The notes under the pieces: generated by a model
What the model saw: only the letters and a program-made list of their open reading frames with translations
The model's database searches: none
Told to the model about the DNA's origin: nothing
Program-made: the position numbers and the translations under genes
Origin: a virus
DNA length: 64,000 nt
Strand: one strand, 5' to 3'
IMG/VR virus record: IMGVR_UViG_3300043436_003696
Span: 26,099-90,098 of that record
In this document: positions 29,184 through 64,000 of the stretch, piece by piece
How the letters are laid out: each line of letters begins with the position of its first letter
Position numbering within the stretch: the stretch's first letter is position 1

Positions 29184-32067
29184 TTATATTTTAAATCTGT
29201 TATTTGGATAAGATGATACCTTAACCCCATTTTCATTAAAAAGTTCAACAAAAATACAACCCTTATCTTCATAGTCGTTAAAAGCTTTTGTGGTTGTTTC
29301 GTAATACTTTTTAAGGGGGCTTTTACCCCTAAAATAAATTATTGCATACTTTTTACTTTTTTTTGTAGTTGCCATAACATTTATTCAGTTGCCTATATTC
29401 TGAAAGGTTCTAATTTATAAAAGCTATTGGCAAGTGCTACAACTCGTCCATAACAGCCATTAACATTAACGGACTAAAGCATACATAGCAAAATATTACA
29501 AACAACATTCCACCTCTTGCATCTTGCGACCATAGAAATGGGTTTGTTTCTGCTTTTAAAAAAGCTATTGCTATGTAAGCAAGTACCGACCAAATAATTA
29601 GTCCTAATGAAACTAATCCTAATGCTTTTACTGTGTTATTCATTTTTCGTTTAATTTAAAGTTTTAGTTTTCAAAATAGCCTTCTGGAATTAAAGACATA
29701 AATCTGCTCATTGGTCTTGGTGTTCCTTCTTGTTCTTTTCCGTAAGCGTATTGAAATGCTCGAACACTACTAAACACTTGTTCTTCTTGTTCTCCGAATG
29801 AGCAAATAGTATTGCTTATTGTATCATAAAAAGCAAAGTCGTTTTGTCCTTCGCAGATTTGGTTTTTTAAATTTAAAAATATAATCATATTTTTGTTGAA
29901 TTTACTTGTGAATAAACCGCACTACTACATAACGTTATAACATTCTAATATATGCCTCTTCAAGTTTCCATTCACAATGAGCTATTGCGTTTGCCTGCTT
30001 TTCTTTATTACTATCATCATTGTACCAGTCGTATACTTCGGAGTCGTTTGTGTATGTTTCAACTTCTTCCCCATTTACAGTTCCACTAATTACGTATCTT
30101 CCATAAGATGAAGTGCTAGATACTTTGATGTTTTCTATTGTGTGTGTGAATTTCATTTTGCGAGTTTTTAAATTGTTATTGTTGTTGTTATTGTTATTTA
30201 ACGGTACGAATGTAAATTTATTATTGACAATAGTTTAGTGTTCCAAAATTTTCTACTTCGCCAAGTCCTGTTCGTTGTATGCAATTTTATTTTACAGTCA
30301 CTAAATAATTTTCTCCAACGTAGTTACCTAACAATCTAAAAGTTAAACCTTTAGGAAGATATTGTCTTTTTAAATGCTTTATAACTGATTTTACCGATGT
30401 TAAATGTGCAGTATTGGTATTATGAGGATATGGAGTATCATAGCTGACCCATATATTTGTTTCATTATTGTACCAAAAATCACCTTCACATTGTAACCAC
30501 CATTTGCTTTTACCATCTAAAGGTTTTCTACGCAACGGAAATTTAGTGTATTTATCACGTGTAATTTTAATTACTCTATTTTGCTTAAAGGTTTCTTTTG
30601 GTTTTGCTGTTAAATCAATTGTTTTAAACTGTTCAAATGATTCTTCACTATAAACATTTTTCATTCTTTCTAAAACAAAATCATTTTTACAATTTTGGAT
30701 TAAATATATATCTAACCAAGTTGGAGTATTCATAATAGGAATTTCACCATTTAAAAAATCTTTTTCTTCATAAGTCCAAACCCAATCACTAATACAAACT
30801 GTTAACCCATCAAAAAATGTTAATTTTTGACTATCTGCCCAAATTTTAAACTCTTTATAATCTTTATAAGAGTTTGTGTATGTTTTATCTATTCCTGCCA
30901 TATTAATTTCTGCGTTTATTACTTTACGTTATAAGTAATGCTTACTAACGCACTCAACTAACTCATTATATTCCTCAATCCATTCAATGTTAATCTTTAA
31001 CCCAGCATTATAGTATCGAGCAATTGCTCCACGCACTTTATTAAATCGTTCTACTTTTACTCGTTCAAAGAAAACATCGTGAAATCTTTTAGGTATCAAT
31101 CCTAATGGTGGTTCGATAGCATTACCGCTAATAGCACTTATATTTAATTGGGCGGTTTTTTGGTTATTCAAATTTTCTACTTTCATCTTTTATTTGTTAT
31201 TTAAAGTTTGTACTATTTAATCCTCTCCTTTCATCACTTATAAATAAATTCTTTATAAAATTGTCAATATCTTTAATATTTTCTTCCCAAGAATATTCGT
31301 TGTCTAACATATATAAAGAAACTTCACTTGAATCAACTTGTGAATTTCTACCATAAACACCTTTATAAAACCTCAATAATATATTATCATCTGATTTATC
31401 ACCAAATATATAATAAGCTATTGCATCCGTAGCATAAGGATATTTATTACCATATTTTTTGTATAGTTTTTGAATGTTATCAACAACACTCACATTTTTA
31501 TTTACAAATTGCTTAAAGTTCTTAATTTTATCAATCATTTTTTTAATATCTTTACTCATAGGTTTTTTCATTACATAAAATATTAATAATTAAATAATTA
31601 AGTAAAACTACATATATAATATAGTTATATGCTATTTTAACCCATCACACCCAAAATGGTTATAAAGTATTATTTGTTTCTTTACAATCATTATAGTTGC
31701 ATCAGGACTTTCGATTGTATCTGTTTCATATTTTGTTTGGCATTTGTAATACTTTTCTCCATGTACTGTTATATAATATTTAATAGTAGATGGTATAAAT
31801 GCCACCAAAAATATGCAAACAAATAAAATCCATTGCTTAAATAGTAGTATTTTTGAAATTAATCTTTTCATATTTATTTTATTTTAACATTTGTTCTTTA
31901 AAAAGTTTCATCGCTTCCTCGCACATTACTTTTATTGTTTTAGAACAAATATTATTTGAAAATGCCCCTTGCACTTCGTTATTATGCCATTCATAGTTAA
32001 TAACAGTATTGTTATTATTGTCATCTACTTCTATTTCAATGTCTTTTACTTTTACTTTTATTCTCAT
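29184..32067 (-). other. Array of small unrelated ORFs separated by degenerate attC-like arms
   Basis: ORFs 29184-29375, 29437-29643, 29664-29888, 29935-30156, 30287-30901, 30929-31186, 31197-31571, 31632-31871 and 31879-32067. Minus-strand GTTATAACG, GCATACAACG...CTTGGCGAAG, ACTTATAACG and GCATATAAC occur at or right after stops. Confidence 0.6.
30287..30901 (-). CDS. Hypothetical protein
   Basis: 204 aa ORF, largest in the array. Confidence 0.65.
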   Translation of the reverse strand: MAGIDKTYTNSYKDYKEFKIWADSQKLTFFDGLTVCISDWVWTYEEKDFLNGEIPIMNTPTWLDIYLIQNCKNDFVLERMKNVYSEESFEQFKTIDLTAKPKETFKQNRVIKITRDKYTKFPLRRKPLDGKSKWWLQCEGDFWYNNETNIWVSYDTPYPHNTNTAHLTSVKSVIKHLKRQYLPKGLTFRLLGNYVGENYLVTVK

Positions 32068-34838: not shown

Positions 34839-35135
34839 TTTTATTTGTTATTAAGTTATTAATTAAATTTGTTTTTGTTAAAACAGCAGAACTACATTTC
34901 AACCTAGTAGTTATTTGTATTATAAAGAACGATAATTGGTTTTAAACTGCTGTTTAATTAATTGATAGGGATAATTCTAATTTTCCCATATTCTTTATCA
35001 TCAGTAAATCCTTTTCTAACTAAATTACAATCTAAATAATAAGATAATCCAATATATTTATCAGGAGTTACATTATAAACTAACTTATTTGGTTTATTTG
35101 TTGGTACGTGTATATTTTGTTTCATATCTTATTTG

Positions 35136-37979
35136 TTAAAGGTTTTGTTGTAGTATTACTACAACAAAACCTTGTTTTGCTGTAATTACTTCATAAGGTC
35201 TATCTTTAAAAAAAGTTATACCCTCAATAATCTGTTGCTTTTCCATTTCTTTGGCTTGTTTTTTTAACTGCAAATAATCTTCAACCTTAATTGAAATTTT
35301 AATTGTTCCCATACTCACATTTTCCCAAGAGTCACCTTGTTTCTCAAGTTGCTCTATAAATTGTTCTACTGCTGTTTGTTTCATATCTTATTTCTTTTTA
35401 AATTGTTTAACAAGCATACTAAATTCAGCTTCTATTGCTTCCTCACAAGTACTTACTGATTCTTCTTTAAATAATATTGCGTGTTTAAAAAATATTTTTA
35501 CTTCTTCCTCACTATAACCTTTTTCTTGTTGATTTGCATATTCATCCATTGCATCAATTATTGTTAAAGGTAAAAGTTCAATAGTTTCTGACTGGTTTAC
35601 ATCTTCAAATTGTATATATTCTCTTAAAACACTTTCTGTTGTTTTCATAATGTTATTTCTTTTTAAATTGTTCATCCCAATAAGATATTACTAGTCTATC
35701 TTGCATCATAAAACCTACTGCAAAATCACACATTTGTTTCTTCTCCATTTCTTTGGCTTTTTCAAAAGTTTGTTCTAATTTTACCCATTGACTATTATAT
35801 AATTCTAATTCAAAATCTAATTGGTCAATTAAGTATTCTACTGCTGTCTGTTTCATTCTATTCTGATTTAAAGGTTTCGTTGTAATATTGTTCTGCTATT
35901 TGTTGATTGTCTAATACATGTTCAGATGGGTATGTATTTTGCCCTTTTATAAAAAAATCAACTATCTGTTGCTTTTCCATTTCTTTGGCTTGTGGTAAAC
36001 ATTTTTTGATTTGTTCTAAATTTGCTCCACATTCAATTAATTCTTCTAACCATTCTACTGCTGTTTGTTTCATATCTTATTTCTTTTTAAATTGTTCAAA
36101 CCATTTATCAATTTCATTACCATTTATTACAATGTTATGTTGATATGCAAAGTGTCCTAAACACTCATATAGTTTTACTAAAACTTCTTCCTCACTATAC
36201 TTATTCTTGTCTTGTTGAAATTCTTTAAACCAATAGTCTCTTGCTGCATATGATTTAGCACCTTGTTGAAATCCTCTATATACCTGTTGATGTTTTAAAG
36301 TATTATTAGAATTACCAAAATAGTTTAACAAATATTTTTCAGCTGCTTCTTCAATTGTTTCTTGTTTAGGTTCTTCTTGTTTCATCTTATTTCTTTTTAA
36401 ATTGTTCAATGATTTTATCTTCTTTTTCTTTAGAATAGATACCTCTATCAACTCCTAATAAAAATGATGTTAATATTGCTTTCCTTAAATCTTCCTCACT
36501 ATACATTCTTTCAGCTTGCCATTTAGCACCATCCGTCCAAATCATTCTTATATCTTCATTTGTATCATAGTCCAATATAATATTAGTAGGATATAATCTT
36601 TCAGCAGCTTCTTCAATTGTTTCTTTATTTTTCATCGTTTTGATATATTAAAGTTTTGTTTAAGAACAGTCAATACTTCATAATTAAGTCCATACTGTTT
36701 TATTTTAGCAAACACATTACCCCATAACTCGTTTTCAAGTGTTTCTTGTTTAGCTTTTTCTTGTGGAATGATGATTTTCCAACCATATTTAGTTTGGAAT
36801 TGTCCATTATGTTTTGACAAATCAACTTCAACCTTAACTTCCTCACACTTTGGATTTTTAATAAACCATTCAAGAAACTCATCATCAATAGCTTGTACAC
36901 CGTCTTTGATTAAGTTTTGGTCTGTTGTTAAGATGATTTTTTTGCAATTATCTTTATGTCTTGTAGAAATTACATCAAAATTGTTACACCAAACATCATC
37001 AAGTTTAGTACATTTTTCAATATGAAACCCATCAGATTCTCCTGTGATTTTGAATAATTCAACCAAATACCAATCTCCTTCTTTAATTTCTGAATCATCA
37101 GTGATGTAGATGTTTTTGTTTTGACACTCATCTGTTGATAAAGCATATCCTTTTTCAAAAATATATTCATGTGTTGTTAAATATAACCTACTTGGTTTAT
37201 CTGTTGGTAATACGTGAATGTTTTTCATCTTATTTCTTTTTAAATTGTTTAAACCATTCTTTACCTTGAATTAATTTACCTCTAACATTTAATGCTTGTC
37301 CTTCATTAAAAGCATTTATTAAATCTTCCTCACTATACATTTTCTTGTCTTGTTCTTGTTGCCATTTAGCACCTGCAATAAAAGAATCACGTTGCGTTTT
37401 AAATTCATCATACACCCTTGCACTTTTCCCACTACCTATCCAAAAGGGTTTATGTGGGTACATTCTTTCAGCAGCTTCTTCAAGTGTCTCTTGTTTAGGT
37501 TCTTCTTTAGGAATGATGAGTTTGTAATCACCATATTCAGTAGCAATTCCTCCTAAGTGATTTCCAACTTCTCTTTCGTCTCTATCAACCTCAACTTCAT
37601 TACAACTTGGATTCTTAACAAACCATTCTAAAAATTCATCATCAATAGCTTGTACACCATCTTCGATTAGGTCGGTGTCTGTTGTAAGAATGATTTTTTT
37701 AAAGTATTCTTTGTGAATATTAATATTTACTAAATCAGTATTTTCATTAACTTTACTAATGATATCTTCTCCAAAATGTTTATAGTAAAACCAATCTCCT
37801 TTTTTAATATCTTCTGAATTAGTGATGTAGATGTGTTGGAATTTTGTAGGATAATCTTTATGACCTACTAAGATATTTTGATGATTAGGTAAAAATGTTA
37901 ATTTATTATTACATAATCCCAATCTACTTAGTTTATTTGTGAATATTAAATGTATGTTTTTTATGTTATTTCTTTCCAT
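35136..37979 (-). repeat. Tandem array of mosaic paralogous ORFs built from shared peptide/DNA modules
   Basis: Eight ORFs share MKQTAVE (x3), AKEMEKxQ (x3), ETxEEAAE (x3), YSEE (x4), QFKKK-stop (x5), KNIH...SRL (x2) and DGVQAIDDEFLEWF (x2), conserved at DNA level. Confidence 0.9.
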
Positions 37980-53860: not shown

Positions 53861-54544
53861 ATGACAGTTAAAGAAGCGTATATTTACATACAGCAAGGGG
53901 TGCAAGCAATTGCATCCTTTGCTTATGCAAATGTGCAATTACAAGAACTAGATTACAATTGGAATTATTGTACGGATTTATTTATTCAATTAGCTTTTCC
54001 TGATAAATATGCAGTACAAAAACCAGAAAAATATCAAGATGTACAAGCATCTATTGATGATTTAAAAATATTAGAAGTATTAGGAAATACTAATACTTTA
54101 TTAACAACTACTATAGGTAGTTATCCTGTTAGTTACATAACATTACCTGAAAATTACAGGCATTTGTTAAACGACAGTACTTTAGTAAAACCATTAAATT
54201 GTGATATTACAAGAGAAGTACCTAACAGATTAACAGAAACAGAAGATATAAAAACGATATTAGAAAACTCAATATTTAAAACTAGTCAAGAAAGCCCTAT
54301 TTCTCATTTATCTGGTAATAATTTATATGTTTATAATTTTTATAAAAACATAAAACAGTTTAATATAGAAGCTATTTATATGGATTATCTATCTAAACCT
54401 ACTAAAGTAGCTTTTGGTAATAATGGTAGTACAGTATTACAATTTCCTGACCAAACATGTTTTAAAATTATAAAAACAGCTATTATATACATGTCTATAA
54501 TAGCAGAACAAAACCCAAATAAAATACAATTATTAAAACAATAA
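53861..54544 (+). CDS. Ring/tail-tube-like structural protein
   Basis: MTVKE, IDDLKIL, LPENYRHL, MDYLSKPTKV; synteny. Confidence 0.7.
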   Translation: MTVKEAYIYIQQGVQAIASFAYANVQLQELDYNWNYCTDLFIQLAFPDKYAVQKPEKYQDVQASIDDLKILEVLGNTNTLLTTTIGSYPVSYITLPENYRHLLNDSTLVKPLNCDITREVPNRLTETEDIKTILENSIFKTSQESPISHLSGNNLYVYNFYKNIKQFNIEAIYMDYLSKPTKVAFGNNGSTVLQFPDQTCFKIIKTAIIYMSIIAEQNPNKIQLLKQ

Positions 54545-55692: not shown

Positions 55693-58600
55693 TGAATACT
55701 AATATATTTGGTAAATATTCAAAAAATTCTAAACCTCAAATAGGTTTAATTTCTTACGATAATTTGTTTGATTTACCTAAACCTTCTAACAATGGTGAAG
55801 ATGGATTAGATGGAAAATCTATATATATTATAAGCTATTCTTACACATTACTAGGAGATACAGAAATATTATTTTCTGATGGTAATACAGTTATTGTAAA
55901 AAAAGGAGATAAAGGAAATAAAGGAGATGGTGGTGAAAATGGATTAGCCCCAGAACATGAATGGTCTGGAACTTTTTTACGTTTTAAAAATCCTAATAAT
56001 ACATGGGGTAGTTACACAAATTTAAAAGGAGATAAAGGGAATAAAGGTGATATTGGAGAGTCAGGAGAATCTATAGAAATAGTTTCATATAGTTATGATT
56101 TATTTGGTAATACAGATATATTATTTTCAGATGCTAGTACTGTAAAAGTTTTAAGAGGTCAAACAGGACTTAGTTCATACAATTTTACTAATGGTACAAT
56201 ACTAGATACTATTAATGTTAAACTAGGAGGTAGTTTAACAGAAAATACTACTATTGCAACAGATGGTTATTCTTTTTATTTAGGTGATAATTTTGCTAGT
56301 TTAAGATATAATCAATTTAATGCTGGTAATTTATTTTTAGCGCATGATAAAAATAATGAATTAAGTTTTAGTATAGCTAACGCTAATGCAGGTGAAAACG
56401 CTTCTATAAATTATGGGTTTATAAATGATACAGCAGCTTATGGCTTATCTTTTTCTTATTACTCATCGTTATATGCACAAAATACTTATGATGATGTAGC
56501 TAATACAGCAGAACTTAAATTTTGGAAAAAGGGTAATATATTACATACTCAAAATGTAGGTTTAGATTTTTGGTATGGAAATCCTACTACTTTAGTTTAT
56601 TATAAAATGCTTTCTTTTTATAATAACAAAGTAGGTATTGGTAATTTTAATACAAACTCAACAGATATTAATAGTACATTACATTTAAAAGGTAGTTATT
56701 CAACATCAGGTTTTACAGGTAAAATAGATAATTATACTATAACAGCAGATGATTATATTGTTACTTTTCATTTAGCTGCTATAAATAGAACATGTACAAT
56801 ACCTGTACACTCAACAGCTAATTTTGGGGCAGGTAAAAGATTTATTATTCGTAATTTAAATCTGTCCACAGGTAATTTAACAATACAATTAAGTGGAGCA
56901 GATAAATTTGATGGTGGTATTTCTGCAATAAATTCTTTAGTTTTATTACCTAATCAATCAGTAGAAATAATATCATTTAATAACAGTAATTGGAGTGTAT
57001 TATCTTCAACAATTGCTAATACTGGTAGTGGATTTGTTCCATATACAGGAGCAACTCAAAATGTAAACTTAGGTGGTTATGATTTGATTGCTAATTCGAT
57101 TATTAAAAATGGAGGTACTTCAAGTCAATTCTTAAAAGCAGATGGAAGTATTGATTCAACATCATACTACCCTAACAGCAACCCAAGCGGATTCATAACA
57201 AGTGCAGCGTTAAGCGGTTACATAAGCGGTTCACTAACTACTGGATATTTACCTGTTGCAACAGGAGCAGGTACGGTGGCAAATAGTGTGTTGCGAGAAG
57301 TATCAGGCAATTTAGGATTAGGAGTTACACCGAGTGCGTGGAGTGGAGTTAAAACATTACAAATTGGTAATTCAAGTTTTCTTGATTCTCTAATAAGTTT
57401 GCAATTAACATATAATGCATATTATAATGGTAGTAATTGGATATATATTAAATCTGATGCTGCTTCTAACTATTATCAAGCAAGTGGACGCCATTCTTGG
57501 AGAACCGCCCCTTCAGGAACGGCAGGTAACGTTTTAACAACCTTTCCCGACTTAATGACGTTAGCAGCTACTGGTAACCTACTAATAGGAACAACAGTCG
57601 ATAACGGAGTAGATAGATTACAGGTTAATGGTAGTGCAAGAATTAATAGTACTCTTACTGTTGGTAGTTTAGCAGGAACAGGTACACGAATAGTAACAGC
57701 CGATACTAATGGAGTGTTGGAAAAAATATTAGGTACATCAAGTCAATATGTGCGTGGTGATGGTAGCTTGGCAACATTCCCAAGTATAACGGGATTAGTT
57801 CCATATACAGGGGCAACTGCAAATGTAGATTTAGGAACTTTTGATTTGACCGCAGATGTTATTACAGGTACAATAGGTTCTTATACAAGTTCTGGTAATG
57901 GTAATACTTTAAGCGTTACCCATTCAAGTGGTAGCGGTATTGCTTTGAATATTACTAAAAGTGGTAATGGAGAAGGTTTATACATAAACAAAACAAGTGG
58001 TTCGGGTAACGCTGCAACAATCATAGGTACGTTAAACGCAACTACTTTAGTTAAGTCAGGAGGTACTTCAAGTCAATTCTTAAAAGCAGATGGAAGTATT
58101 GATTCAAATAGTTATCTAACATCAATAAATGGAATAGCTGCTGGTGGTGATTTAAGTGGTACATATCAAAGTCCAAATGTCAGTGGGTTGTTAGGTTCTC
58201 CTTTACCATTTTTTGGGGGAATTAGTGGTGACACTTTATTGTTAGGAAAAGACATTTCAACAGGAGATTGGACAACAATATCTTTGTCCAACATAATTAC
58301 TTTTAGTAAATTATCTGAACCTTTGTATGTATATACAGACCTTTTTGGTAATAAATTTCTTGATATACGAGTTGCAACAGCAAGCCAAAATGGAGTTTTG
58401 TCATCTAGTGCATTTACTACATTTACTAATAAACAAAATGCAATAACACTAACAACTACAGGAACTTCGGGTGCAGCTACTTTTTTAGGAGATACATTAA
58501 ATGTACCCAATTATACTTTAGCAGGGTTAGATGGTGTTCCAACTGGAAGAACATTAACAATAAATGGAACGGCATTTGATTTAAGTGCAAATAGAAGCTG

Positions 58601-59552
58601 GAATGTAGGAACAGTAACAGGTGTTACAGGAACAACTAACAGAATAACATCAAGTGGAGGTGCTACACCAATAATAGATATTGCTTCTACCTATGTAGGG
58701 CAATTATCAATAACTACTTTAGGAACTATTGGAACTGGTGTATGGCAAGGTACAGCAATAGGAGATGCTTATATTTCAAGTGCAGCTATTTGGAACGCTA
58801 AAATAGGTGGCTCACTAACTACTGGTTATTTACCCGTAGCAACTGGAGCAGGTACGGTGGCAAATAGTGTGTTGTTTCAAAATGGTAATAACGTAGGTAT
58901 TGGAGTAAGTCCACTTTATAATTTACATATTCAAGATTCTAAAGCATTGGGGTTGTATTCTTACTTAGAAAATACTAGTTCTAATTCAATTGCAAGTGCT
59001 AGTTATATAGCTAAATCTCAATCAGGTGTTACAATAGGAATGACTGCTTTAAATCAGGGTGGTGGTGCGCTGATTAATTCTTCACATAATTTAACAATAG
59101 AAGCAAGTGGTGGTGGTGGTATGGTGCTACAAACAAATGGTCAAATTATAACTAATGGGGCGGTTAATAGTGGAGAACATTTTATTATTGGTGGTAGTGC
59201 TAGAATTAGTGGAACTCTTAGAGCTGCACAAATAAGCACAACAAAACAAACACTAACACCTACTGGAACAACGCAAACAATAGATTGGAATAACGGAAGC
59301 ATAGTTGACCTTGTATTAAGTTCGGCAACTGGAAACGTTACTCTCACATTATTGAATGCGCAAAACGCTATTTGCCCTTTAATAGAAGTAACTAATGGTG
59401 CAACTCCTAGAAATTTAATCTTCCCAACAGGAACAATTCAAGCTAATGGAGGTGGAAATGTTTACGTTGGAACTGCAAATAGAAAAGACGTTATTGCGGT
59501 ACTATGGGATGGGACTCAATTTCTAATATCTGTTTCACGAAATTTTGCATAA
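55692..59552 (+). CDS. Tail fibre/receptor-binding protein
   Basis: Collagen-like GDKGNKGD repeats, G/T/S-rich fibre motifs (GGTSSQFLKADGS, VPYTGAT, GNLLIGTT, NVGIG), internal duplications. Confidence 0.88.
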   Translation: MNTNIFGKYSKNSKPQIGLISYDNLFDLPKPSNNGEDGLDGKSIYIISYSYTLLGDTEILFSDGNTVIVKKGDKGNKGDGGENGLAPEHEWSGTFLRFKNPNNTWGSYTNLKGDKGNKGDIGESGESIEIVSYSYDLFGNTDILFSDASTVKVLRGQTGLSSYNFTNGTILDTINVKLGGSLTENTTIATDGYSFYLGDNFASLRYNQFNAGNLFLAHDKNNELSFSIANANAGENASINYGFINDTAAYGLSFSYYSSLYAQNTYDDVANTAELKFWKKGNILHTQNVGLDFWYGNPTTLVYYKMLSFYNNKVGIGNFNTNSTDINSTLHLKGSYSTSGFTGKIDNYTITADDYIVTFHLAAINRTCTIPVHSTANFGAGKRFIIRNLNLSTGNLTIQLSGADKFDGGISAINSLVLLPNQSVEIISFNNSNWSVLSSTIANTGSGFVPYTGATQNVNLGGYDLIANSIIKNGGTSSQFLKADGSIDSTSYYPNSNPSGFITSAALSGYISGSLTTGYLPVATGAGTVANSVLREVSGNLGLGVTPSAWSGVKTLQIGNSSFLDSLISLQLTYNAYYNGSNWIYIKSDAASNYYQASGRHSWRTAPSGTAGNVLTTFPDLMTLAATGNLLIGTTVDNGVDRLQVNGSARINSTLTVGSLAGTGTRIVTADTNGVLEKILGTSSQYVRGDGSLATFPSITGLVPYTGATANVDLGTFDLTADVITGTIGSYTSSGNGNTLSVTHSSGSGIALNITKSGNGEGLYINKTSGSGNAATIIGTLNATTLVKSGGTSSQFLKADGSIDSNSYLTSINGIAAGGDLSGTYQSPNVSGLLGSPLPFFGGISGDTLLLGKDISTGDWTTISLSNIITFSKLSEPLYVYTDLFGNKFLDIRVATASQNGVLSSSAFTTFTNKQNAITLTTTGTSGAATFLGDTLNVPNYTLAGLDGVPTGRTLTINGTAFDLSANRSWNVGTVTGVTGTTNRITSSGGATPIIDIASTYVGQLSITTLGTIGTGVWQGTAIGDAYISSAAIWNAKIGGSLTTGYLPVATGAGTVANSVLFQNGNNVGIGVSPLYNLHIQDSKALGLYSYLENTSSNSIASASYIAKSQSGVTIGMTALNQGGGALINSSHNLTIEASGGGGMVLQTNGQIITNGAVNSGEHFIIGGSARISGTLRAAQISTTKQTLTPTGTTQTIDWNNGSIVDLVLSSATGNVTLTLLNAQNAICPLIEVTNGATPRNLIFPTGTIQANGGGNVYVGTANRKDVIAVLWDGTQFLISVSRNFA

Positions 59553-59555
59553 CAT

Positions 59556-60425
59556 ATGTTTGGTAACGCTTTCTTTTTTTCATCGAGATTAATACTTGAC
59601 GGCTTAAATAGTGCTGCTGCGTATAGTTTACGAAAACTTCGTACTGAATACTTAGGTGCAGCTATTAATGTAAGAAGAAGTAGCGACAGTGCCACTCAGG
59701 ATATTGGCTTTACAGCAAGTGGTGATTTAGATACTGTAACTTTGCTAGCATTTGTAGGTGTTGGTAATAATGGCTTTGTAACAACGTGGTACGACCAATC
59801 GGGCAATGGTCGCAATGCAACTCAAGCCACGGCAGGATCGCAGCCGCAAATTGTTAGCAATGGTGCGATACAGACGGAAAACGGACGGCCCACGCTGCGC
59901 TTTGACGGCATAGATGATTATTTAGCTGCCCCTTCTCCGCTTATTAACACAACGCACAGTTTGTTTATTCTGTTCACACCGAAGATTGAAAATGAATTCG
60001 GGACTGTTTTTGGGCAGTGGTCTTCTGGGCAAACTGACCGTTTTTACATTATTGCAAACCAAAATTCGGCTGGACCTATTTCGGCTGGGTTCTTAAACGT
60101 AGCCAACATTGCAGCGACAGGAGGCAACGGAACCAACGGTTTAGCCGCAGATGTTGCTATTTCAAATACACCCACTTTAATCACATCTATATCAACCACC
60201 GGAAGCGAGCAGTGGAAACTGTTTAAGAACGGCACACAATGGGAAAGCGCAACAATTACGAGCCTCTATACGGGGGTTAATAGTGCTATAGGTTCGTTGA
60301 ATGGAACTGCATCATTGCTCACATTTGACGGCACTGTATCAGAATTGATTTCGTTCCCCTCCGTCCTCTCCACCACCAACCGCCAAGCACTCGAGCGTAA
60401 CCAAGGGCAATTTTACAGTATATAA
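59556..60425 (+). CDS. LamG/ConA-like carbohydrate-binding virion protein
   Basis: AAYSLRKL...VRRSSD...DIGF...VTTWYDQSGNGRNATQ...FDGIDDYL. Confidence 0.8.
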   Translation: MFGNAFFFSSRLILDGLNSAAAYSLRKLRTEYLGAAINVRRSSDSATQDIGFTASGDLDTVTLLAFVGVGNNGFVTTWYDQSGNGRNATQATAGSQPQIVSNGAIQTENGRPTLRFDGIDDYLAAPSPLINTTHSLFILFTPKIENEFGTVFGQWSSGQTDRFYIIANQNSAGPISAGFLNVANIAATGGNGTNGLAADVAISNTPTLITSISTTGSEQWKLFKNGTQWESATITSLYTGVNSAIGSLNGTASLLTFDGTVSELISFPSVLSTTNRQALERNQGQFYSI

Positions 60426-60622
60426 CACCTTTGCGGGGGGGGTGTTAGCCTGAACGCTAACGCCTGCCGCCTTGCGAAGCAAAAGCCTTTTGCGTGACAG
60501 CTGCTGTTTTTTTTCTCGTTGATTTTCAGTGCTTTAGAAAATAATTTGAAAATATATTTGAAAAAGTTTGCACAATCAAAACAAGTGTTATTTATTTGTA
60601 CCAACAAAAACGGTAAAACAAA

Positions 60623-60817
60623 ATGACAAATTTAAAAACAACACTTGGACTTAGAAACAACATCGACCAATTTTCAACTTTGGAAGGTGCTAACAGATGG
60701 GCAAACAACTGCGTAAAATTACATATTGTCTTGCTTGGCGATAACGGCAAATATTGGGTTGCTTGTTTTGTAGATGCTCAAAAACTTTCTAAAATGGGTT
60801 ATGAAATTGCAGCATAA
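60623..60817 (+). CDS. Hypothetical protein
   Basis: 64 aa ORF with an A-rich leader. Confidence 0.6.
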   Translation: MTNLKTTLGLRNNIDQFSTLEGANRWANNCVKLHIVLLGDNGKYWVACFVDAQKLSKMGYEIAA

Positions 60818-60970
60818 GAAAAAAAAAGTGGCGGCACTAGAAAAGGTTCGGGTGCTAAACCTAAATATAATGAGCAAACTAAAACAGTTGCATTTCGCTG
60901 TCCGCTGTCAAGAGTAGATGAGCTGAAATTAATCATTAAGTCTAAACTCTCGGATTGGATGGTAAAATAG
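60801..60970 (+). pseudogene. Small DNA-binding protein gene frameshifted at an A9 tract
   Basis: The frame SGGTRKGSGAKPKYNEQTKTVAFRCP...WMVK* has no in-frame start; the ATG at 60801 is one frame off across A9 (60819-60827). Confidence 0.5.
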
Positions 60971-61022
60971 CCTATAACGCCCGCAGCCTTACGCAGTGCG
61001 GCTTAACAAGTAAAATTTATAG

Positions 61023-61437
61023 TATGAAAACAGAAGATTATTTTAACGAAGGAACACCATTTGAAAGCATGAAAGCATTAAAAGCAAAAGAGCAACTAAC
61101 AGTATTGCTACCAAAAGAAATCAGCTACGGACACACCATTGAAGAAGCCGAAGATCAAGATTTCATTACAGAGGTTATTGAGCAATTTGCAATGATGCAA
61201 GCGCATAACTTTTTAACATGGTTGGAAAACGAACAATACCAGCATATAGGCTCAGGCGATTGGTCTAATGGTGAACAAGTTTTAAACGCATCGGACTTGT
61301 ACCAAAAGTTTATTGAATCAGACATTAAACCGCTGTTAGCGGCTGTGTTGCCGATTCAGAAAGTGCCAAAAGAGTTTTGTCGGTGTAAAAACCCGCTTGT
61401 TCACGATAGTCAATGTCCATGCGGCATTGACCGCTAA
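61023..61437 (+). CDS. Hypothetical protein reading through an attC-like arm
   Basis: Probable start MKTEDYF (ATG near 61023); the stop codon lies in CCGCTAAC. Confidence 0.55.
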
Positions 61438-61502
61438 CGGTTTTGGGCTTGCGAAGGCAGGGATTAAGAAAGAAAAATTATCAACTTAAAACAAAATAAA
61501 TT

Positions 61503-61757
61503 ATAAAAACGAAAATTTCAATTAACCGATTAGCCTTTGCTTTTGCAAGTGTGCTGTTCTGTGCCGTCTTTTCTTCATGTATTGATGAAGAAAAAAAAAG
61601 TAAAAGAGAGAGAGAGTATATTGAGAGAAAAGAGCTAATTTATAAAACAGAACATTGCAGGTATTATTGTTTAGAACGTAATGGACTTGAACAGTGCAAG
61701 GTTGTTATTTGCGAATGTGATAGCGGTTATAACGCTGATGTATCTGTGTCATGGTAA
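61503..61757 (+). CDS. Putative small lipoprotein
   Basis: The frame extends upstream to (I)KTKISINRLAFAFASVLFCAVFSSC, a lipobox-like sequence; the start would be ATA or GTG. Confidence 0.5.
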   Translation: MKTKISINRLAFAFASVLFCAVFSSCIDEEKKSKREREYIERKELIYKTEHCRYYCLERNGLEQCKVVICECDSGYNADVSVSW

Positions 61758-61829
61758 AAGGTTACCTAAGGGTTTGCAAGTATATTTAGTTGCAGTACTT
61801 TATTTAGAACAAATTTAATTTAAAAATAT

Positions 61830-62408
61830 ATGAGAAAAGGAGATTTTACAACACTTGGAGCAACTGCTCATTCTGATGAAGAAAGAGAAGAAAATGATTT
61901 TTATGCTACCGACCCAAAGGCATTAGAATTATTTTTAGACCAAACAGGTATTGAATTACGGAACGTATGGGAATGTGCTTGTGGAGAAGGGCATTTAGCA
62001 AAAGTATTAGATGCAAGAGGATTGCTTGGAAGAGCAAGTGATTTGATTGATAGAGGTTATGGGGTAACAGAAAGTAATTTCTACTACTTTTCTGAAACAT
62101 GGGAAGGAGATATTTTAACAAATCCACCATACAGAGATGCAATGAAATTTTGCCAACACGCTCTTGATTGTGTAGATGAAGGAAGTAAAGTAGTAATGCT
62201 GATGCGTATTCAATTTTTGGAAGGGCAAAAACGTAAACCGTTTTTACTTGCGAACCCGCCAAAGTATGTATATGTAAGTAGTTCAAGATTATTACTTGCA
62301 AAAAATGCAGACTTTGTGAAATACAATACACCCTCTGCCAACTGTTATGCTTGGTATGTTTGGGAAAAGGGATTTAAAGGAGAAACTACTTTGCGTTGGT
62401 TTAACTAA
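61830..62408 (+). CDS. DNA amino-methyltransferase (N6-A/N4-C)
   Basis: DFYATDP, WECACGEG (SAM-binding motif I), ILTNPPY (motif IV), YAWYVWEKG. Confidence 0.9.
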   Translation: MRKGDFTTLGATAHSDEEREENDFYATDPKALELFLDQTGIELRNVWECACGEGHLAKVLDARGLLGRASDLIDRGYGVTESNFYYFSETWEGDILTNPPYRDAMKFCQHALDCVDEGSKVVMLMRIQFLEGQKRKPFLLANPPKYVYVSSSRLLLAKNADFVKYNTPSANCYAWYVWEKGFKGETTLRWFN

Positions 62409-63096
62409 AATGTGCATTGATATGGGCTTATCTGAAAATGAAATGAACAAAGTTCTCGAAGGGGAACAGTGTAAAACTCAATGCGTAGCCTGTGCTTGTA
62501 TTGTTGGCGAACAAAGAATGAAAACTCAAAAATTAATCGAAAAGATTAACGAAGGACGTTCTTAGTATTACTGCTAACGATGGATATTGGCGCAGTGCGT
62601 ATTATTAACAATAAAATGATAGAAATTTATAAAAAAACAGAATTAGGAACTCAAATAAGGGTTAACAACGGATCTATTGAAACTCTTATAAAACGTGAAC
62701 TACCTTATGGATTATTCCAAAGCGAAAGTGGGTACAAAGTGGTAAGAAGTATTACCTCTATTAAAGATTCTGATATAGTAAAATGTGAAACATGGGAACA
62801 ATAACATATAAGAGGCGTAAAGTAAGCGGTGGTGTTGCAAAATACTACGTTGAAATAGATGCACAAATTGGAACTATTCAAATAATTAAAATTCATTTTG
62901 TGCCAAATAATAGTTTGCATCCAACAGCCCACGTAAGCAGGAAATTTAGCACACATAGCTTAGTAATTCAGTGTATACCGCTATTGGTTGAGGATATAAA
63001 TATAATTTATCAGCAAATAGCGGGAGCAAGCAAATTGGTAAAAAATTAAATAGCACAAAACCGCTGTGAGCAGACGGCTTTCTAATATTTTCAATT

Positions 63097-63531
63097 ATGA
63101 CAACATTCGTTTTAATAGTTTCAGAGTTCTTTCCAAAAACTCACAAAAAATCAGGCAAGCCAACAGGTTTTCCTTTGTCAATTAAACATTATGATAAAAT
63201 ACACACTATCAGAGGTAACTATGATTTGTGGGCTAAACGATTTGAAAAAATAAACAAAGGCGAAGCTATTTTGTCAGTTAGAATTTGGTCAGGCAAACCA
63301 TACCAAAGTAAACAGCAAGAGATTTTCAAGTATGATAAAACTCACGGAATAGGTATGCAAAAATTAGAACAACCAAACAATTTTGTATTTGCACCTATTG
63401 AAGGTAAAAAAGTAAACTGGGATTTGGTAGCAAAAAATGACGGATTAAGTTTTGAAGATTTTTGTGAGTGGTTCAAAGTTAGGTCAGACAAACCTATGGC
63501 AATTATTCATTTTACGGATTTTCGCTATTAA
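63097..63531 (+). CDS. Conserved Bacteroidota-phage protein, ASCH/PUA-like
   Basis: KIHTIR, WSGKPYQSKQ, AKNDGLS.EDF.EWF. Confidence 0.6.
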   Translation: MTTFVLIVSEFFPKTHKKSGKPTGFPLSIKHYDKIHTIRGNYDLWAKRFEKINKGEAILSVRIWSGKPYQSKQQEIFKYDKTHGIGMQKLEQPNNFVFAPIEGKKVNWDLVAKNDGLSFEDFCEWFKVRSDKPMAIIHFTDFRY

Positions 63532-63678
63532 GCTGTCTGATAGCGTTTTGTGGCTTGGCGAAGTACCGCCTTGCAGAATGTTGAATTATAGTACAAAGGC
63601 TTGTGGCGGTATTTTGCCAAACCACTGTTATAAGCCGTTTTTTATTCGTGTTTGGCTTAACAATTTAATTTAAAAACA

Positions 63679-63963
63679 ATGACAAGATTAGAAGAAATTA
63701 TCAGAACAACAAGAGCAACTGGAAACACAACTTGGATTTTACAGTCAGCTATCAAAAGACCTAATTGCATAATCGTTTCAAGAAATATGCAACAGGCAAA
63801 ACATTTAGAACAAGCATATAAAAGTTTGTTGTCAAAAAGTGCTTGGTATAAAAAATTATGGTGGAAATGGTTTGGTCGTAAAAGTCCAAAGTTTGTTTCA
63901 CTTGATTTCAGATTTGATGGGTATCGTCTGCCTGTTATTTTTGATAACGGGTCGTTGTTCTAA
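63679..63963 (+). CDS. Hypothetical protein, possible degenerate P-loop fragment
   Basis: RATGNTT...IIVS...PVIFDN. Confidence 0.55.
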   Translation: MTRLEEIIRTTRATGNTTWILQSAIKRPNCIIVSRNMQQAKHLEQAYKSLLSKSAWYKKLWWKWFGRKSPKFVSLDFRFDGYRLPVIFDNGSLF

Positions 63964-64000
63964 AATGGCTTATAGCGCAAAAACTGCCGATAGTTCGGTA

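Follow-up and report, generated by a model that had tools for sequence, protein, structure and literature searches.

What kind of element is formed by the small genes and hairpins that crowd the end of a viral contig, how are such genes gained and lost, and to which virus do they belong? These questions are raised by positions 60426-64000 of a 64,000-nt stretch of DNA (hereafter the window), which corresponds to positions 26099-90098 of the 90,098-bp IMG/VR record IMGVR_UViG_3300043436_003696. A preliminary description had seen here an integron-type cassette array within a crAss-like phage. The first part of that proposal is borne out, as the units have self-complementary ends, folded AAC...GTT sites lie between them, and related phages differ by whole units. 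Considered as a whole, the region is quite probably an integrase-less, partly decayed array of about nine mobile cassettes, shaped by a tyrosine-recombinase mechanism, which belongs to a lake phage of ~47 kb and ~44% GC (record G001) and was joined by the assembler to a crAss-like genome.

For the comparison, relatives of two of the array genes were gathered from viral contigs (95 loci, 1.35 Mb). L-numbers designate viral loci, G-numbers viral records (G000 being the window's own record) and X-numbers lake-water metagenome runs. Folded sites were sought with a first scanner for the family architecture (TAAC...GTTA with a constrained fold), with a covariance model (R1) built on an alignment of 18 sites (A1), and with a second covariance model (R2) built on the 99 sites found by R1. 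The array family occurs in phages whose few database relatives are Flavobacterium phages.

Pairing of Cassette Ends

The units can be recognized as cassettes by the pairing of their two ends across the genes that they enclose. Three such end pairs had been named in the preliminary description, and all of them pair as claimed: 10 of 11 flank bases are paired for 63627/63973 (ends 63627/63962), 9 of 11 for 63066/63541 (ends 63066/63530), and 8 of 8, including the core, for 61335/61431, where pairing stops after four flank bases. Among the 260 candidate GT[TG]A...TA[AG]C pairs in 60421-64000, only 63066/63541 and 63627/63973 reach at least 9/11, and at least two pairs of this quality were obtained in 3 of 1000 dinucleotide shuffles used as a control. 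Two of the three pairs therefore exceed shuffled sequence, while 61335/61431 falls short of the control threshold.

The same property can be found throughout the family. When the six nucleotides after GTTA are compared with the six nucleotides before the next TAAC, i.e., across the open reading frame (ORF), at least five of six pair in 45 of 71 consecutive site pairs, as against 4 of 98 when both ends are taken from the same hairpin and 3 of 71 when the partner is sought in the wrong direction. The mean number of paired bases is 4.41 across the ORF, compared with 2.32 within the same hairpin and 2.28 with random partners. Most of the 26 site pairs that miss are long intervals, in which a decayed junction may lie. 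Such pairing across ORFs is the signature of integron cassettes and is unexpected from terminators or from homologous exchange at conserved motifs.

Folded Sites between the Cassettes

From 5' to 3', a site of the family begins with TAACG and about four unpaired nucleotides. The 4-bp stem that follows is separated by a C/A mismatch from a second stem of ~15 bp, which contains G.T wobbles; after the AT-rich loop come the return arm, one or two nucleotides and GTTA. Sites span ~54-130 nt between the cores and vary in length mostly in the loop, and the first interior loop is of the 4x0 type in 43 of 76 sites, as judged from predicted folds. The cores are well kept, TAAC being present in 91 and GTTA in 88 of the 99 aligned sites. 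Within alignment A1, 80.4% of the cells are paired as compared with 67.1% in shuffles, and the covariation score is 0.412 as compared with 0.169, neither value being reached in any of 500 shuffles; slid controls gave 0.06-0.25, and 14 of the 19 stem pairs vary on both sides. Model R1 found its 99 sites at E ≤ 0.01 in the gathered loci, every one of them on the strand of the query gene, and these sites cluster in arrays (17 in L029, 13 in L019 and 13 in L033). The unpaired loop (e.g., 63571-63604 in the window) holds a family-wide sequence motif, in upper case in the R1 consensus, which might act on the downstream gene as a promoter or translation-start element.

Two full hairpins had been described in the window, and both can be confirmed, by different means. 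The hairpin at 63537-63633 has arms of 21 nt (63550-63570 and 63605-63625) that are 86% complementary, and its DNA fold is more stable than shuffles on both strands (z -3.47 on + and -2.76 on -). The corresponding site, 63533-63638, scores 93.4 bits with R1 and 85.4 bits with R2, these scores not being independent, since it is a training row in R1 and, via the identical copy in L001, in R2. The hairpin at 61432-61562 is not above shuffles in free-energy folding (z +0.46) and is recognized by the covariance models, with 21.5 bits (E 0.018) for R1 and 58.9 bits (E 4e-11) for R2; its site, 61427-61567, is a training row in neither. Free-energy folding does not single out the short junctions at 60436-60515, 60965-61015 and 63045-63085. 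As regards the AT-rich 60-kb backbone of the window, neither R1 with filters off nor R2 gave a convincing match, the best being 16.2 bits at 54395-54493 and 16.0 bits at 35124-35183 (E ~0.3), and no match at E<1 was obtained with either model on the minus strand at 29184-31871.

Unit Shuffling among Relatives

Breakpoints between relatives fall at the cores, as the preliminary description had anticipated. For the 144-aa (amino acid) gene, the homologues found in L004 (93%) and L006 (94%) resemble the window over 63071/63074-63547 alone, i.e., core to core, the match opening just inside the GT[TG]A core and closing just beyond the TA[AG]C-G core. Their flanks are unrelated. All hairpins flanking the copies of this gene differ, and each copy keeps its own complementary ends (13/15 and 11/15). 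Regarding the methyltransferase unit, homology with L021 and L096 begins at 61786, on a degenerate TTTA core; both loci have an intact hairpin there, followed by the same 12-nt flank, and homology limits of this unit can be seen in L019-L023. Units of the window recur in a different gene order in L022, where 60490-60629 and 60818-60971 are represented. Over 13 arrays, 17 of 57 ends of homology blocks lie at most 15 nt from a detected core, compared with 3.7 ± 1.8 for random placement (maximum 10 in 500 trials).

Metagenome contigs from four lake-water runs (X1, X2, X3, and X5) were aligned with the window at 90% likeness, and the joints that they display may stem from related phages. Contigs from X1-X3 show no differences from the window, and those from X5 show 2-22 differing letters per listed piece. 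One X5 contig joins 61330 to 63062 within 7 common nt that include the G|T of both cores, by which five genes are removed; another X5 contig puts the methyltransferase unit after 63067. An X1 joint (61340 to 63976) was set aside, one of its sides comprising only 25 letters.

Recombinase Genes of Array-Bearing Phages

The preliminary description had proposed a host IntI or an enzyme encoded elsewhere, and IntI can now be discarded as a candidate in the records searched. Neither TIGR02249 (IntI) nor PF00589 has a match in G000, and PF00589 has none in G001; the array is integrase-less, its owner encoding no recombinase. Of ten further records with arrays, two yielded a PF00589 protein. Both have all their sites upstream of the recombinase gene and on the same strand, with none downstream, and the last cassette ends at a TAAC 40-50 nt ahead of the start of the recombinase. 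G003 (169.7 kb; loci L019 and L109) harbors 43 R2 sites at 77,769-114,902, on one strand over 37 kb, and none elsewhere in the record; the run stops ~0.8 kb before the recombinase gene (region 77,769-116,572).

The recombinase has 278 aa and its counterpart 298 aa, the two being 30% identical. These enzymes, the only recombinases found beside the arrays of relatives, are Xer-like (NF040815, 112 bits) and remain far below the IntI cut-off (66.8 bits with TIGR02249 versus 265). When bacterial genomes were searched with the Xer-like recombinase, only two Fusibacter loci were retrieved (27-30% identity). A viral scan with the alignment of the two recombinases gave three loci, two of which are the queries; the third, L110 (27% identity), has no hairpin site. 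Neither an HUH transposase (PF01797) nor a serine recombinase was found in five array-bearing records.

Evidence to the Contrary and a Regulatory Alternative

Several observations weigh against cassettes moved by a tyrosine recombinase. Only 2 of the ~9 junctions of the window are detected by R1 or R2. In classical attC sites, two or three conserved extrahelical bases on one arm set the choice of strand, according to Bouvier (2009); such bases, which the preliminary description had proposed to look for, occupy no fixed position in the present family, the 76 predicted folds showing 67 1x1 mismatches and 26 (5' arm) plus 16 (3' arm) pure bulges. An RNA structure would be just as compatible with the conserved G.T pairs of the sense strand. 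No recombinase, whatever its type, was found in G000 or G001, and none turned up in 8 of the 10 other array-bearing records or among the examined records that are at least 90% complete (G001, G002, G005, and G010). As to exchange, 40 of the 57 homology ends are not near a detected core, and the metagenome joints, seen at 90% likeness, could be those of related phages. Moreover, a classical single-point crossover would keep each hairpin linked to one neighboring gene, and this link is not strict: locus pairs with the same downstream unit share the hairpin in 5 of 12 cases (the other 7 have another) and those with the same upstream unit in 0 of 4. Of the 32 locus pairs in which the hairpin is common to both, 5 agree in the downstream unit, none in the upstream unit and 27 in neither.

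The hairpins might instead serve the regulation of early genes at the RNA or DNA level, for example as terminators, processing stems or promoter carriers, with modules being swapped at them by homologous recombination. Module exchange by homologous recombination at conserved intergenic sequences has been proposed for the promoter stem-loop cassettes of T4-type phages. A regulatory role would account for the better folding of the sense strand via G.T pairs (G.U in RNA), for the conserved loop motif in the model consensus and for the T runs that follow several sites; the exchange of hairpins independently of both neighbors in the 27 of 32 pairs, and the lack of a recombinase in most array-bearing phages, are also in its favor. 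However, homologous exchange at conserved motifs does not predict that six nucleotides pair across the ORF far more often than within the hairpin itself (45/71 versus 4/98), and the arrays stop exactly at the tyrosine recombinase gene in the two records that have one. Terminator-like sites show no clear enrichment in 60300-64000 (4 versus 2.3 ± 1.8 in shuffles), the four sites do not include the two full hairpins, and no Rfam family was matched. This regulatory alternative appears rather improbable, and cassette exchange by a tyrosine recombinase is retained as the preferred explanation.

Ownership of the Array

The backbone of the record is distantly crAss-like, its major capsid protein being 27-29% identical to those of crAss-like phages, but the array is most likely not part of it, and its assignment to a crAss-like phage in the preliminary description is not supported. 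The GC content of the record is mostly 21-32% (25% for the backbone) and climbs to 32-40% in the last 6-8 kb. The first 214 bases of the record are a repeat, at 97.2% identity, of window 60202-60415, where a 289-aa virion gene has its 3' end; beyond them the record continues with AT-rich backbone genes. The backbone is therefore an 86.3-kb circle that closes at the virion gene without the array, and 60426-64000 hangs past the closure. In L112, an independent contig from another sample, the virion gene passes straight into the record-start backbone genes with no array at that place (94.6% identity to window 59192-60415, and 99.8% over 2423 nt to genome positions 1-2423).

The array can be attributed to another phage. 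All 3749 nt of window 60252-64000 recur at 100% identity at the end of G001 (locus L001, 44% GC), a record of 47,171 bp with ~44% GC in the fetched part and 94% completeness according to CheckV. At its opposite end, G001 has a homologue of this virion gene, of which the 5' part is present (79-90% identity); with the array at one end and the 5' part of this gene at the other, G001 owns both. Past the end of the window, G001 encodes an endonuclease, a 926-aa primase, a single-stranded DNA-binding protein (SSB), a nucleoside deoxyribosyltransferase-like protein and an HNH endonuclease, and the array lies between the virion module and the replication (primase/SSB) module. The contig depths of backbone and array are uncoupled, their ratio shifting between the four runs: 36.7 versus 4.7-8.3 in X1, 14.5 versus 9.9-20.9 in X2, 19.3 versus 20.9-29.3 in X3, and 47-49 versus 98-257 in X5.

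The contig is most likely an assembly chimera, joined via the near-identical 3' end of a virion gene that is common to two phages. Over window 59345-60680, the summed depth of lake-metagenome contigs amounts to 1,500-2,600, whereas it is 15-50 in the adjoining stretches, and variant letters are numerous here. The 3' half of the virion gene seems to be common to many abundant phages of these lakes, which would explain both the break in assembly and the chimera. No listed contig piece spans 59687-60386 in the four runs, and this gap was not used as evidence.

It is very unlikely that the contig is correct and that a crAss-like strain truly bears the array after its virion gene, as a gain from a G001-like phage. 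Such a natural recombinant is conceivable given the virion gene common to both phages, the record was assembled as a single contig, and the tail genes at 55.7-60.4 kb are already GC-richer than the backbone. Against it stand the repeat and the closure of the circle without the array, the array-free arrangement of L112, the uncoupled depths, the difference in GC (25% versus 35-44%), and the continuation of the array at 100% identity into the replication module of G001, not back to the backbone. The array is real but, standing on a chimeric contig, it is uninformative about crAss-like phages.

Proposed Mechanism and Polarity

With G001 as owner, the array and its proposed mechanism can be outlined as follows. 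Each cassette starts at a GTTA-type core, carries one or two small genes and ends at a TAAC-type core, its ends being inverted repeats of 8-15 nt. Between cassettes lies a folded site bounded by TAAC-G and GTTA, with a one-sided bulge of 3-5 nt after TAAC-G, a stem of ~20 bp that includes G.T wobbles and a variable, AT-rich loop. A tyrosine recombinase would recognize this site as a folded single strand and would cut out and insert cassettes, presumably as circular intermediates, with crossover at the AAC/GTT cores. The folded strand would be the gene-sense strand, equivalent to the "bottom" strand of classical attC sites. Related phages have the gene of a small Xer-like recombinase at the downstream end of their arrays; as G001 encodes no such enzyme, any present-day shuffling of its cassettes would need that of a co-infecting phage or of the host.

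Regarding the strand, 76 of the 92 distinct sites fold more stably on the + (gene-sense) strand (Wilcoxon 6e-13); TAAC is followed by G in 96 of 98 sites, and 60 of 67 cassettes have their longest ORF on the + strand. In classical attC sites, G after AAC marks the recombined bottom strand (Bouvier, 2009). The polarity is the reverse of that of classical cassettes, in that the genes lie on the strand matching the classical bottom strand, which may also be the strand that is recombined. Turned over, the arrays read recombinase, junction, cassette, site, cassette, as in an integron, but with the genes facing the recombinase.

That the units are single-strand hairpin transposons of the IS200/IS605 kind, in which an HUH (Y1) transposase cuts beside hairpins on one strand, is scarcely credible, for although the strand specificity and the hairpins adjoining a fixed tetranucleotide are reminiscent of them, PF01797 is absent from the five array-bearing records, each junction has a single hairpin and not distinct left and right end hairpins, inverted repeats at cassette ends are not a trait of IS200/IS605, and the enzyme at the array ends is a tyrosine recombinase and not an HUH enzyme.

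Anatomy of the Array in the Window

The features of the array are collected in Table 1. The genes are small, all are on the + strand, and PHROG matches were obtained for 3 of 10 proteins tested (a virion protein, a DNA methyltransferase and one unknown family). As the preliminary description had noted, genes tend to end close to RYYTAAC-like motifs, 8 of 11 stopping 0-9 nt ahead of a TA[AG][CG] core, and some cores are degenerate (TAGC three times, and TAAG, GTGA, GTTC, and TTTA).

Table 1. Coordinates of genes, cassettes and junctions at the end of the window.
Feature	Coordinates	Strand	Remarks
289-aa virion structural gene	59556..60425	+	phrog_10356, 1.6e-34; 3' end is the most likely junction of two phage genomes
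Stop codon of virion gene	inside TAAC core 60423-60426	+	identity with L001 begins at 60252
18-nt mini unit GTTA..TAAC	60444..60461	+	ends 6/6 complementary; small hairpin in fold
Short junction: TAACG, 5' arm motif, small stem, GTGA	60458..60497	+	direct-repeat family D1; arm motif in two other junctions; no match by R1 or R2
Cassette with 64-aa gene (60623-60817) and start-less frame (60818-60970)	60494..60978	+	ends at TAAC 60975-60978
Truncated hairpin (5' arm only) and conserved leader	60975..61023	+	matches L001 7809-7900 (97.8%) and L002 2950-3018 (89.9%)
137-aa ORF	61024..61437	+	spans collapsed junction 61326-61338 into next short unit
Short cassette, GTTA 61335-38 to TAAC 61435-38	61335..61438	+	ends 8/8 complementary; flank motifs match family flanks
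Hairpin site with long AT-rich loop and degenerate 3' core	61427..61567	+	TAAC 61435-38, GTTC 61556-59
68-aa ORF	61551..61757	+	open frame from 61500, inside hairpin loop
Collapsed junction TAAG...TTTA	61767..61788	+	hairpin middle deleted
Cassette with DNA methyltransferase (61830-62408) and 51-aa gene (62410-62565)	61785..62578	+	ends at TAAC 62575-78; methyltransferase is phrog_799, 4.1e-54
Two overlapping small genes, 74 and 85 aa	62580..63049	+	after bare TAACG (62575-62579), no hairpin
Collapsed junction TAGC...GTGA	63051..63069	+	keeps only last ~13 nt of 3' arm
Cassette with 144-aa gene (63097-63531)	63066..63544	+	phrog_8581, unknown family; 9/11 flank bases of ends pair
Intact hairpin site	63533..63638	+	cores TAGC 63541-44, GTTA 63627-30
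Cassette with 94-aa gene (63679-63963)	63627..63976	+	10/11 flank bases of ends pair
Start of next, atypical hairpin junction	63973..64000	+	leaves window, continues in L001 to ~3775

Apart from the full hairpins, the junctions retain remnants of several kinds. At 60975-61023 nothing but the 5' arm is left, and at 61326-61338 and 63056-63069 the last ~13 nt of a 3' arm; the middle is collapsed at 61767-61788, and a bare TAACG stands at 62575-62579. The two 3' arm remnants resemble each other, 61327-61338 matching 63058-63069 at 11/12. The atypical junction at 63973 scores 12.4 bits with R1 and, at L001 3714-3783, 14.9 bits with R2. The array is partly decayed, and most junctions of the window, having lost their hairpins, are probably fixed.

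The truncated hairpin, the leader of ~25 nt that follows and the first codons of the next gene form a portable module, found at window 60983-61074, L001 7809-7900 and L002 2950-3018, where it stands before three different genes; a related leader motif is also found ahead of the ATG at 63679. The start-less frame 60818-60970 opens on a run of nine A, immediately behind the TAA of the 64-aa gene and in frame with it. Contigs of X5 hold one extra A in this run (depth 44.6 of 44.6), with which the ATG at 60774 could read to 60970 and yield a single small protein; an error in the homopolymer, a difference between strains or a frameshift site may lie behind the extra A.

With regard to the 68-aa ORF, the frame that is open from 61500 encodes a basic and a hydrophobic segment and a Cys with acidic residues after it, and has no ATG, GTG, or TTG upstream of 61551. 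Judging from the translation, it looks like a frame encoding a lipoprotein-type signal peptide through the 3' arm of the hairpin, in which case this arm and its core would be coding. Elsewhere in the window, an X1 backbone contig (19,433 nt, 0 differences) omits 948 nt at 57110-58059, inside a 1286-aa tail-fibre-like gene, which looks like a repeat-length variant of that gene.

Comparison with Known Systems

The array family shares numerous traits with integrons, attC sites and integrase-less attC clusters (CALINs). The cores are inverse (AAC...GTT) and enclose an imperfect palindrome with an unpaired spacer between paired parts and a variable terminal loop; the structure is kept while the sequence varies, and G follows AAC on the better-folding strand. 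A unit comprises one or two genes, and the bases with which it begins pair with the core region at which it ends. Differences between relatives involve entire units, and some relatives have a tyrosine recombinase at one end of the array.

Unlike an integron, the relatives' arrays are associated with a Xer-like recombinase of 278-298 aa (66.8 bits versus the IntI cut-off of 265) and not with IntI. The genes of the phage arrays lie on the strand equivalent to the classical bottom strand and point to the recombinase, the pairing of the ends extends over 8-15 nt as compared with ~7, the sites have no fixed extrahelical bases, and the hairpin is not strictly inherited with one neighboring gene. The array of the window, moreover, is without a recombinase and mostly decayed.

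In the promoter-early stem-loop (PeSL) mobile regulatory cassettes of T4-type phages, small early genes are likewise flanked by conserved intergenic stem-loops, and modules shuffle between related phages. They differ in that exchange has been ascribed to homologous recombination between direct repeats, from which neither unit-specific inverted-repeat ends nor a tyrosine recombinase would be predicted.

More generally, it is tempting, if somewhat speculative, to suppose that lake and marine phages with Flavobacterium-phage affinities run an integron analogue of their own, in which promoter-bearing hairpins are recombined as single strands of gene sense by a small Xer-like enzyme and not by IntI, the genes face the recombinase and the cassettes have self-complementary ends of 8-15 nt. 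Arrays with as many as 43 sites (37 kb) would result, and phages without an integrase, such as the present one, would take anti-restriction and other accessory genes from them, and lose such genes, in natural populations. If so, phages would own a dedicated system for swapping accessory genes (here a methyltransferase and small unknown genes) that is integron-like but has another recombinase and the opposite polarity, and the extreme turnover of early genes seen in phages without an integrase of their own would become easier to understand.

CALINs in virulent phages have already been published: 17 phage-borne CALINs are reported in the part of Qi et al. (2023; Front Microbiol, PMC9892861) considered here, including that of the virulent Polaribacter phage P12002L, which has methyltransferase cassettes and one site of which was recombined by IntI1, the sole integrase tested. 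Pairing of ends across ORFs, a Xer-like partner and inverted polarity are not described in the sections of that paper considered here; among the matches listed in the literature, no account was found of a Xer-like partner, inverted gene polarity or long end pairing for phage cassette arrays. When P12002L was searched with R2 (default filters), no match at E<1 was obtained; R1 gave five weak matches (16.5-21.7 bits), which all lie between genes, on the gene strand and next to methyltransferase or Mom genes. The tie between the window family and the P12002L CALIN is accordingly weak at the level of the sites themselves. In overall organization, as far as it is set out in those sections (Qi et al., 2023), the two have in common a phage of the virulent type, the lack of an integrase, methyltransferase cargo and sites placed between small genes.

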